From Escherichia phage PhiR68_1: 37,128 nt of DNA. The position numbers and the translations under genes are program-made. Shown here piece by piece: positions 346-3,282 of the stretch; the stretch's first letter is position 1, and every line of letters begins with the position of its first letter. Location of the stretch: the sequence record PV340575; one strand, given 5' to 3'. Below the pieces are notes generated by a model. It saw only the letters and a program-made list of their open reading frames with translations, made no database searches and was not told where the DNA came from.

Positions 346-861
346 TTATACGGCTTTTTTTACATCTTGTGGTTCTTGTGAAGGAGCTACAAAACCTTCC
401 TGTTCATGAATACCATACTCTGACAAAATCTCTTTGCGCGCATCTGCTGGTAAAGTTTCTAGCATTTGGGCTAGTTGTATGCACTCACGCGATACGCCGT
501 GCAGAGATTGGATTTGAGTCTGATCAAAGATACTTGGCATTAGTGCTCCAAGTCCGCCTTTACTAAGTAGCTTTAATGCCCTCTGGATTTCCTCTGGTTC
601 TAACTCTGCGACCAAAGCCATTAACACAGAAGCTAACTTATAAGCTGGCTTATCGCTATCTAATAACTGCGCCCCTCCTAATTCTGCCTGAGTGGCATCA
701 GGTAATGAGCTGATATGGTATTCATAAGCAACTCCCTTTACTCCTTTGATCTGTCTCTTTTTCCATCCCTCATTAGTTGCTTTGCGGCTAATACTACTTG
801 CTGAAGACGGAAGACCAGCAACCCCTTGTAGCTCTTTAGCTGAAAACCATTCTTGTGTCAT
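346..861 (-). CDS. c: Lysogenic repressor (D108-like N-terminal DNA-binding domain, Mu-like C-terminus)
   Basis: 171 aa from the ATG (track ORF starts one codon earlier at GTG); C-terminal half ...[15 protein letters not shown]...[12 protein letters not shown]...[11 protein letters not shown] resembles Mu c; leftmost gene, transcribed leftward. Confidence 0.9.
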
Positions 862-864
862 CAC

Positions 865-1060
865 AAACCTCGCTTTAAATACACCATGTATTCAAAGAAA
901 CAAAAATATATTCATTTTAAAATCATCAAGATAGATGAAATTCAAACGAAATATTTGAATACATCATTGCATTGACAATGTATTCACACTAACATTGCTG
1001 CATACCTTGTCAGCTACCTTGCGGCGTAGCTGATGGCGTAGCTTGTGAGGATTGCATTTT
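865..1060. promoter_or_regulatory. Divergent early control region (operators, Pe/Pc, transposition enhancer)
   Basis: AT-rich intergenic region between divergent c and ner; hairpin CAGCTAC-N8-GTAGCTG (1011-1032) and tandem GGCGTAGCT (1023-1031, 1035-1043) just upstream of ner. Confidence 0.7.
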
Positions 1061-1279
1061 ATGGCGATAAAGAAAAGTAAATGTGAAGACAAAAGCAGAT
1101 ACGACATTGTTGCTGATCTGCGCAAAAGAGGAAAAAGCCTAGCAGCTCTTGGTCGTGAGAACGGTCTCTCTATCTCTACGGTAAAAAATGCCTTGGATAA
1201 ACCTTACCCTCGGGGTGAAAGAATTATTGCCGATGCATTGGGAGTTGAGCCACGAGACCTCTGGCCTTCGAGGTATTGA
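1061..1279 (+). CDS. ner: Ner-type early transcriptional regulator
   Basis: 72 aa from ATG 1061 with GAGG 9 nt upstream (track ORF starts at TTG 1052); small HTH protein at the Mu ner position. Confidence 0.88.
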
Positions 1280-1281
1280 AA

Positions 1282-3282
1282 ATGCAACCACAATGTAATG
1301 ATTGGTTTTCTGCAAAGAAATTAGAAGGGCTGATAGGTCTTCCAAAATCCTCTAGCGCGATCTCTCGTAAAGCAAGGTTAGAACAGTGGGTGTTTCGACA
1401 GATACACGGGGTAAGAGGAGTAGCCTATGAGTTTCATATCTCATCTTTACCAAAGGAAACGCAAGCTGCGTTATTGCTTAGACAAGGAGAGATTGAAACA
1501 AGCATGGGCCGTTTTGAAATCGCCCGCCCCACGCTGGAAGCCCACGATTATGATCGCGAGGCGCTGTGGAGCAAATGGGATAACGCCAGCGATTCCCAGC
1601 GCAGACTTGCTGAAAAATGGTTGCCTGCGGTTCAGGCCGCAGACGAAATGCTGAACCAGGGGATTTCAACAAAAACGGCTTTTGCGACCGTTGCAGGACA
1701 TTACCAGGTCAGCGCATCCACTTTGCGTGACAAGTATTACCAGGTACAGAAGTTTGCGAAGCCTGACTGGGCGGCTGCTCTTGTTGATGGACGTGGTGCA
1801 TCCCGTCGCAATGTTCACAAAAGTGAATTTGACGAGGATGCCTGGCAGTTTCTGATTGCAGATTATCTGCGACCGGAAAAACCCGCCTTCCGCAAATGTT
1901 ATGAGCGTCTGGAACTGGCAGCCCGCGAGCATGGCTGGAGTATTCCCTCCCGTGCCACGGCCTTTCGCCGGATTCAGCAACTGAACGAGGCAATGGTTGT
2001 TGCCTGCCGTGAAGGTGAACATGCACTGATGCATCTGATACCGGCACAACAACGAACTGTGGAACACCTGGACGCCATGCAGTGGATCAACGGCGACGGT
2101 TATCTGCATAACGTCTTTGTACGCTGGTTTAACGGTGATGTGATCCGCCCGAAAACATGGTTCTGGCAGGATGTGAAAACCCGAAAAATTCTGGGCTGGC
2201 GCTGCGATGTGAGCGAGAACATTGATTCAATTCGCCTCTCGTTCATGGATGTTGTGACTCGCTACGGTATCCCGGAGGATTTTCACATCACCATTGATAA
2301 CACCCGTGGTGCTGCGAATAAATGGCTGACGGGAGGCGCGCCCAATCGCTACCGCTTTAAGGTAAAAGAGGACGATCCAAAAGGACTGTTTTTACTGATG
2401 GGGGCGAAAATGCACTGGACAAGCGTTGTTGCCGGTAAAGGCTGGGGCCAGGCAAAACCTGTTGAACGTGCTTTCGGTGTTGGTGGGCTTGAGGAATACG
2501 TTGATAAGCATCCGGCACTGGCTGGCGCATATACGGGGCCTAATCCGCAGGCAAAACCTGATAACTATGGCGACCGCGCTGTTGATGCAGAGCTGTTTCT
2601 GAAAACCCTTGCCGAAGGTGTGGCGATGTTCAATGCCAGAACAGGCCGTGAAACAGAAATGTGCGGAGGCAAACTTTCGTTTGATGACGTTTTTGAGCGT
2701 GAATACGCCAGAACGATTGTGCGTAAGCCTACCGAAGAGCAAAAACGGATGCTGTTACTGCCTGCCGAGGCGGTGAACGTTTCACGTAAAGGCGAGTTCG
2801 CGCTTAAAGTTGGCGGCTCCCTTAAAGGTGCGAAAAACGTTTATTACAACATGGCGTTAATGAATGCCGGAGTGAAAAAAGTTGTGGTCAGATTTGATCC
2901 ACAGCAGTTACACAGCACGGTTTATTGCTACACCCTGGACGGTCGGTTTATCTGTGAAGCGGAATGTCTGTCACCTGTTGCGTTTAATGATGCTGCGGCA
3001 GGCCGTGAATATCGCCGCCGCCAGAAACAACTGAAATCTGCGACGAAAGCAGCGATTAAGGCACAGAAACAAATGGATGCACTGGAAGTGGCAGAGCTGC
3101 TGCCGCAGATAGCCGAACCTGAAGCACCAGAATCACGAATTGTCGGCATTTTCCGGCCTTCCGGTAATATGGAACGGGTGAAGAATCAGGAGCGTGATGA
3201 TGAATACGAAACTGAGCGTGATGAATATCTGAATCATTCGCTGGATATTCTGGAACAGAACAGACGTAAAAAAGCCATTTAA
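1282..3282 (+). CDS. A: DDE transposase MuA (D108-like N-terminal enhancer-binding domain)
   Basis: 666 aa from ATG 1282; from about residue 60 matches remembered MuA ([13 protein letters not shown]...[36 protein letters not shown]...) through C-terminal ...[13 protein letters not shown]. Confidence 0.97.

Follow-up and report, generated by a model that had tools for sequence, protein, structure and literature searches.

We analyzed a 37,128-nucleotide (nt) stretch of DNA from Escherichia phage PhiR68_1 (sequence record PV340575), referred to here as the window, which contains a prophage of the Mu family. Near its left end lie the gene for the repressor c, the sites that separate c from the early gene ner, ner itself, and the start of the gene for the transposase A. 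We propose, with a probability of about 0.7, that the region from nt ~440 to ~1480 is a lysogeny-control and enhancer-specificity module in a third allelic form that is distinct from the forms in Mu and in D108/SfMu, and that it is heteroimmune. Heteroimmunity to both Mu and D108 would probably be its main consequence, as judged from the sequences. We also lean, slightly less firmly, toward the view that this is a third natural heteroimmunity and enhancer group in which the DNA-binding domain of c, the operator, Ner with its own operator, and domain I-alpha of A diverged together from D108, and in which the C-terminal domain of c was swapped independently.

The original prediction, made from the letters of the sequence, was that the window contains a mosaic immunity module, and the check proposed for it was a plot of identity to Mu and D108 over the first 2 kb. 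We examined identity with a 50-nt sliding plot on a four-way alignment of the window, Mu, D108 and SfMu, together with blastn. Identity was not uniform, and the mosaic was borne out with recombination junctions in c and in A. From nt 8 to ~440 the window was 94-100% identical to Mu and about 80% identical to D108. From ~440 to ~1450 identity was 27-70% to Mu, D108 and SfMu alike, and downstream of ~1450 it was at least 90%. The sole nucleotide high-scoring segment pair (HSP) inside the block was with D108, at 68% over nt 814-1057 (244 nt), and blastn of nt 466-1443 gave no nucleotide match to Mu or SfMu. After the block, Mu-like identity returns at nt 1444 and D108/SfMu-like identity at nt 1482. 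The junction inside A had been predicted near nt 1460, and base-level alignments agree with this. For scale, SfMu and D108 are 90-99% identical to each other in the same parts (c, Ner and the N-terminus of A). The authors of the SfMu study report that its c and Ner are 89% and 98% identical to those of D108 (PMC4406740).

Nucleotide searches of the block against 50,697 phage records, in near and distant modes, gave matches in the flanks only, and the best tblastn match of c in the same records was at 47%. No record among them carries the block, which is therefore not that of a known sequenced phage. A scan of the species-representative genomes of GTDB with the c repressor gave no match. Likewise, literature searches turned up no description of a third immunity type besides those of Mu and D108, nor of heteroimmune Mu-like coliphages.

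Alignment of c with its counterparts showed that the DNA-binding domain is 58% identical to that of D108 and 34% to that of Mu, whereas for the C-terminal domain the identity is 59% with Mu and 32% with D108. Because the identities differ domain by domain, c is a hybrid of a D108-family DNA-binding domain and a Mu-family C-terminal domain. At full length c is closer to Mu than to D108 (46% versus 40%, tblastn), so that D108 is the nearest relative of the DNA-binding parts only. The N-terminal half of the repressor had been predicted to differ from Mu. It does, but nearly the whole of c differs from Mu in nucleotides, and it is at the protein level that the C-terminal half belongs to the Mu family. 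The protein matches Pfam PF02316 (E=2e-22) and is related by sequence to PDB entries 1TNS and 1G4D. In an AlphaFold model, c folds as a winged helix in which residues 21-31 form a helix and residues 35-49 the beta-hairpin wing. Foldseek superposed this model on domain I-alpha of MuA (1TNS) with a root-mean-square deviation of 1.7 Å over 61 columns and also matched it to the Mu repressor domain 1QPM.

The winged helices of the Mu repressor and transposase recognize the same operator/enhancer. The N-terminal similarity of the two proteins was reportedly the subject of work by Harshey et al. in 1985 and Mizuuchi et al. in 1986, to go by their titles as cited in PMC3820752. In the window, the DNA-binding domain of c and the N-terminus of A are identical at 40 of 75 residues (53%), and the corresponding values are 40% in Mu and 50% in D108. 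Residues 1-80 of A are 53% identical to D108 and 50% to Mu, and the latter figure is inflated because residues 55-80 are Mu-identical. Beyond residue 80, A is 99% identical to both Mu and D108. A matches Pfam PF02316, PF09039, PF02914 and PF09299. The predicted recognition helix (residues 21-31) contains SSISRKA in c and SAISRKA in A. At the same place D108 and SfMu have TNITRKA in both proteins, and Mu has GVHYRA in c and GVIYVA in A.

In the whole 37 kb, TGTATTCA occurs without mismatch only three times, always within nt 887-986. Together with copies that carry one mismatch, these sites form two clusters between c and ner, at nt 873-897 and 954-986. The function of an additional half-site between the clusters (nt 906-913) is uncertain because it is poorly conserved, with four of its eight columns invariant. 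The operator region aligns with those of D108 and SfMu position by position, and where the window has TGTATTCA the other two phages have TGATTTCA or GATTCC. Each aligned half-site departs from its D108 counterpart at two central bases and shares the other six of its eight bases. GTATTC occurs three times in the operator region of the window and is absent from those of D108, SfMu and Mu. Conversely, GATTTC is absent here and occurs twice each in D108 and SfMu. Across seven loci, 27 of 32 operator half-site columns are invariant versus 27 of 53 columns in the DNA between the half-sites. The helices of c and A changed in parallel with the half-sites, which is the pattern that a change of specificity would predict.

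A generic sigma-70 scan gave no rightward promoter and a single leftward match. Since there was no rightward match, the early promoter Pe was placed by the D108 alignment alone, by reading the hexamers at the aligned D108 positions (TTGATT-N17-TACATT). The predicted Pe is straddled by the right pair of operator half-sites. The leftward promoter-like site (nt 978 to 950) could be Pc.

The first early gene, ner, encodes a protein with 62% identity to D108 Ner and 45% to Mu Ner. It matches Pfam PF13693 (E=4e-25) and PDB entries 1NEQ and 7F9H. Upstream of ner is a putative Ner operator. At the aligned place D108 has TGAGCTAC-N8-GTAGCTCA, which we take to be the D108 Ner operator, and the two differ by one symmetric C/G swap per arm. 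The arms of this palindrome have 15 of 16 columns invariant and the spacer has three of eight. Residues 10-15 of Ner are DKSRYD, and the corresponding residues are DWHRAD in Mu Ner, in D108 Ner, in a relative from Salmonella that is described below, and in the EnrR repressor (PDB 7F9H). A tryptophan has been lost and, three residues further on, a tyrosine has appeared. The replacement could be a compensated change in the protein core or part of an altered Ner specificity.

Of 5426 complete E. coli genomes, 15 carry the block near full length with 95-100% identity, and there is one truncated copy in addition. Four of the 20 places that matched the block are 57-nt matches to Mu-type transposase genes, and the remaining 16 are of this type. 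The 5426 genomes together contain 93 Mu-type A genes, located in 83 of them. By immunity type, 32 of these places are Mu (many of them in laboratory strains), 45 are D108/SfMu, and 16 are the type described here. The three types explain essentially all 93 genes and this type makes up roughly one in six. Diverged forms of the block, with repressors 85-88% identical, occur in draft genomes, and the block was also found in four IMG/VR viral contigs. RefSeq names the three genes 'DNA-binding protein', 'helix-turn-helix transcriptional regulator' and 'transposase domain-containing protein'. The chromosomal site of the prophage differs in every genome examined, giving at least eight insertion sites.

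Between the window and the diverged forms, the synonymous substitution rate (dS) was 0.4-0.75. The ratio of nonsynonymous to synonymous rates (dN/dS) was 0.06-0.09 for the DNA-binding domain of c, 0.05-0.10 for ner, and 0.06-0.09 for residues 1-60 of A. Judged from these values, the block is under purifying selection. It is functional and circulating. In strain 22KM0354 the block is 100% identical over 1061 nt, while the rest of that prophage is 96-98% identical to the window and has a Mu-type right end. Its flanks differ as well, so the prophage in the window is not the one in this strain. Other carriers have a different variant of the left end that is ~82% identical to Mu. The block moves between backbones.

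Two strains carry a prophage of this type alongside a prophage of another type. Strain MIN10 has a prophage that is 99.4% identical to Mu, including the Mu immunity region. Strain 22KM0354 (NZ_CP151071.1, nt 886500-926500), a dog blood isolate, has a full-length D108-type prophage that is 97.6% identical to D108 over its first 7.6 kb and in which c, ner, A and B are annotated as intact. The prophage of this type in 22KM0354 is flanked by a clean ACCAC duplication. The two prophages of this strain have many identical proteins in common. The neighbors of the D108-type prophage, a truncated glcD-like gene on one side and fimbrial genes on the other, suggest a rearrangement beside it. Strain N61 (NZ_AP028880.1) holds a derivative shortened by deletion, with the left end, c, ner and the beginning of A joined straight to the tail-fibre/gin/com/mom end. 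This remnant keeps the immunity genes and could still shield its host from superinfection.

We propose that these components work together as follows. The N-terminal winged helix of c would bind TGTATTCA-type half-sites in the two clusters between c and ner, and this binding would switch off the early promoter. Domain I-alpha of A, which is homologous to the c domain, would bind the same two clusters in their role as a transpositional enhancer, and Ner would bind the neighboring TCAGCTAC-N8-GTAGCTGA palindrome. Since the three DNA-binding domains have to fit their sites, domains and sites would be inherited as one block. The junctions would then fall just beyond the parts that determine specificity, in the 3' part of c and right after I-alpha of A. 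The outcome would be a phage that is heteroimmune to Mu and D108 and has Mu/D108-type ends, transposition chemistry and virion.

The original prediction held that the module is D108-like and gives D108-type immunity. Put as an alternative, this would make the block a diverged D108 immunity region that still confers D108-type immunity, in a phage that is a D108/Mu recombinant and whose c, Ner and A I-alpha cross-recognize D108 sites. In its favor, the c domain (58%) and Ner (62%) show D108 to be nearest to the module in its DNA-binding parts, the operator region aligns with that of D108 with six of eight half-site bases, the AGCTAC core and the N8 spacing in common, and the right end of the prophage is truly D108-type. 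We nonetheless consider this alternative unlikely. SfMu, a relative with D108 immunity, has 90-99% identity to D108 over these parts, compared with 32-62% here; the C-terminal domain of c is of the Mu family; the same two-base change is seen in all aligned half-sites, with GATTTC not found in the operator region; the recognition helix is altered both in c and in A; and 22KM0354 holds a D108-type prophage and one of this type. The label of D108-like does not fit a block in which the two domains of c are 58% and 32% identical to D108, Ner 62% and residues 1-80 of A 53%, and in which the half-sites and Ner arms differ. A very improbable alternative is that the region is a decaying, non-functional remnant in a defective prophage whose divergence reflects drift. 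In its favor, N61 holds the deleted derivative with c-ner joined to tail-fibre genes, and no phage isolate with the module occurs among the 50,697 phage records. Against this, the open reading frames (ORFs) are all intact in a full-length prophage with a target duplication, dN/dS is 0.05-0.13 with cis sites conserved and spacers variable, and the module occurs at no fewer than eight independent insertion sites and in IMG/VR viral contigs. Finally, an artefact of assembly or of construction of the window, that is, a chimeric join of unrelated sequences, is scarcely credible and was rejected. The block and the neighborhood of its junctions recur, 95-100% identical, in 15 complete genomes that were assembled independently, as well as in draft and viral contigs, and we found nothing in favor of a chimera.

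Several observations weigh against a third, heteroimmune allele. The changes from D108 are small, just two positions in the half-site and one in the Ner arm, so partial cross-recognition with D108 is possible. The covariation of helices and half-sites comes from just three to four independent lineages. The assignment of each protein to its site is, like heteroimmunity itself, predicted from sequence, and the promoter positions are likewise those suggested by alignment. No match to the consensus for integration host factor (IHF), WATCAANNNNTTR, with up to one mismatch was found in nt 865-1050, a range that covers the DNA between the operator clusters. At this place Mu has a perfect site (TATCAACGCGTTA) and D108 has a site with one mismatch; an AT-rich stretch with AAAATCA is kept at the aligned position within nt 865-1050 of the window. 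The 5-bp flanks of the D108-type prophage in 22KM0354 (ACCAG and GCGGC) do not match, and its history is therefore not simple. Double lysogeny agrees with heteroimmunity without proving it.

Table 1. Features at the left end of the prophage, with coordinates in nt of the window.
Feature	Coordinates	Strand	Remarks
Target-site duplication TTCAA, left copy	3-7		Right copy at 37124-37128
Mu-type left end (attL), including the last ~31 codons of c	8-438		~95% to Mu, ~80% to D108
c repressor, 171 amino acids	346-861	-	Identical to RefSeq WP_019841371.1 ('DNA-binding protein'); ends ...VKKAV
C-terminal domain of c, Mu family	346-675	-	
Left recombination junction	438-466		In 3' part of c, last ~31-40 codons; base-level alignment; Mu HSP ends at 465
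Winged-helix DNA-binding domain of c, D108 family	676-861	-	Codons 1-62
Putative left operator/enhancer element	873-897		Palindrome CTTTAAATACA-CCA-TGTATTCAAAG; half-sites 876-883 and 887-894
Extra degenerate half-site	906-913	+	TATATTCA, one mismatch
Putative right operator/enhancer element	954-986		Inverted half-sites TTTGAATACAT (954-964) and ATGTATTCA (978-986); overlaps predicted Pe
Predicted early promoter Pe	967-995	+	-35 TTGCAT (967-972), N17, -10 TAACAT (990-995)
Putative Ner operator	1010-1033		Palindrome TCAGCTAC-N8-GTAGCTGA; only one in window
ner, 72 amino acids	1061-1279	+	Identical to WP_019841372.1
A, type-specific part: domain I-alpha, enhancer-binding winged helix	1282-1443	+	Residues 1-54
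Right recombination junction in A	1444-1482	+	A codons ~55-67; base-level alignment
A, remainder: I-beta/gamma end-binding domains, DDE core, C-terminal domain	1483-3282	+	99% to Mu and D108

The module is part of a complete prophage. It runs from the Mu left end at nt 8 (TGTATTGATTCAC) to the right end at nt 37123 (...GCCGCTTCA). These Mu-type ends, with the 5-bp sequence TTCAA on both sides, indicate that nt 8-37123 is a complete Mu-family prophage that was inserted by transposition. The first 50 nt of the left end (nt 8-57) are 100% identical to Mu, and the right end (nt 36525-37123) is D108-type and includes an ORF (nt 36585-37031) that is 99.3% identical to the D108-specific gp56. The two ends are therefore of different parentage. 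The N-terminus of gp56, MKKSKLLISTIISLFVLTASSVNHAQ, resembles a signal peptide. In blastn comparisons with Mu (NC_000929), D108 (NC_013594) and SfMu (NC_027382), the prophage is a fine patchwork whose segments have 95-100% identity to one or other of these phages, and the window, with its late region, is 95-100% colinear with Mu and D108. The exceptions are two stretches without a match to any of the three, nt 466-1443 and nt 7417-8494. As predicted, the later part of A, B, Gin and Com are Mu-like: A is 99% identical beyond residue 80, B shares 311 of 312 residues with Mu, and Gin and Com are 99% and 100% identical to the Mu proteins, as is Mom at 98.8%. The idea of a Mu-like backbone holds for the early region past the block, which is identical to Mu/D108, but as a whole the backbone is a patchwork of Mu, D108 and SfMu with a right end of D108 type.

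The second of the two unmatched stretches, nt 7417-8494, contains ORFs at nt 7450-8118 (222 amino acids, named 'ASCH domain-containing protein' in some RefSeq genomes) and nt 8121-8462 (113 amino acids). A Pfam search with the ORFs of nt 7450-8462 found no domain. The stretch is at least 99% identical in eight chromosomal Mu-like prophages and 88-90% identical in ~236 E. coli plasmids, mostly of ~48 kb, where it adjoins ead/Ea22-like genes. This suggests that it is an accessory cassette common to Mu-like prophages and phage-plasmids. The invertible G segment, within nt 31885-34963, is in the same orientation as in the reference records of Mu and D108 and opposite to that in SfMu. Its variable part (nt ~32200-33000) is just 75-86% identical to Mu and D108.

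Research on Mu has relied on two immunity types, those of Mu and D108, and the comparison of these two phages was the first clue that repressor and transposase share the operator/enhancer. A third allele would extend this comparison to a natural altered-specificity series, alignable to D108 base by base, with a two-base change in the half-site and matching changes in the helices of two proteins. Such a series could serve to map DNA recognition by the winged helix and to ask whether the match between enhancer and transposase is strictly required. If the C-terminal domain of c was indeed swapped independently, specificity and induction physiology, the latter residing in a C-terminal domain concerned with stability and oligomerization, would be separable modules in nature. 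The type would also supply a third compatible Mu-type element for genetic tools, for example mini-Mu systems without cross-repression, and would explain some double Mu lysogens in wild E. coli. No principle is changed by this, as exchange of immunity regions is expected and is ordinary modular evolution of temperate phages.

In comparison with the Mu immunity region (c, O1-O3/enhancer, ner and MuA I-alpha), the module in the window has the same architecture and logic. It also resembles Mu in the C-terminal domain of c (59%), which has the same ...VKKAV end, and in attL (95%). It is unlike Mu in the DNA-binding domain of c (34%) and in Ner (45%), and the Mu operators, of CTTTT-Y-AGTAA type, are unrelated to TGTATTCA. 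Mu c is 196 amino acids long with an N-terminal extension, and there is no such extension here. The control region of D108/SfMu is closer in layout, with identical gene order and spacing. The DNA-binding domain of c (58%), Ner (62%) and I-alpha of A (53%) are of the same sub-family, the Ner palindrome likewise has 8-bp arms, an N8 spacer and an AGCTAC core, and the point at which the conserved part of A takes over is no more than about 40 nt from the Mu/D108 junction. The differences from D108 are in the half-site (TGATTTCA in D108, TGTATTCA here) and helix (NITRKA in D108, SISRKA here), in the Ner arm and protein (TGAGCTAC with DWHRAD in D108, TCAGCTAC with DKSRYD here), in the C-terminal domain of c, which at 32% identity is not D108-like, and in the left end of the prophage, which is Mu-type here.

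Another close system is a Mu-like prophage of Salmonella enterica (GCA_025165595.1, locus L012, with repressor P0008), which has SISRKA in both c and A and GTATTC/GAATAC half-sites. It is unlike the window in having the reciprocal mix of domains: the C-terminal domain of its c, the N-terminus of its Ner (DWHRAD) and the arm of its Ner operator (TGAGCTAC) are D108-like, and its A gene has diverged past I-alpha. Since P0008 has the reciprocal domain arrangement, the two domains of c reassort, and the mix in this prophage indicates that the specificity of repressor and enhancer and that of Ner can reassort separately. The Mu-like Yersinia phages vB_YpM_5 and vB_YpM_6 (MT374853 and MT374854) match the window just from nt 3190 on. 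Their immunity region and nearly all of A are therefore of another type, and there are more alleles outside E. coli.

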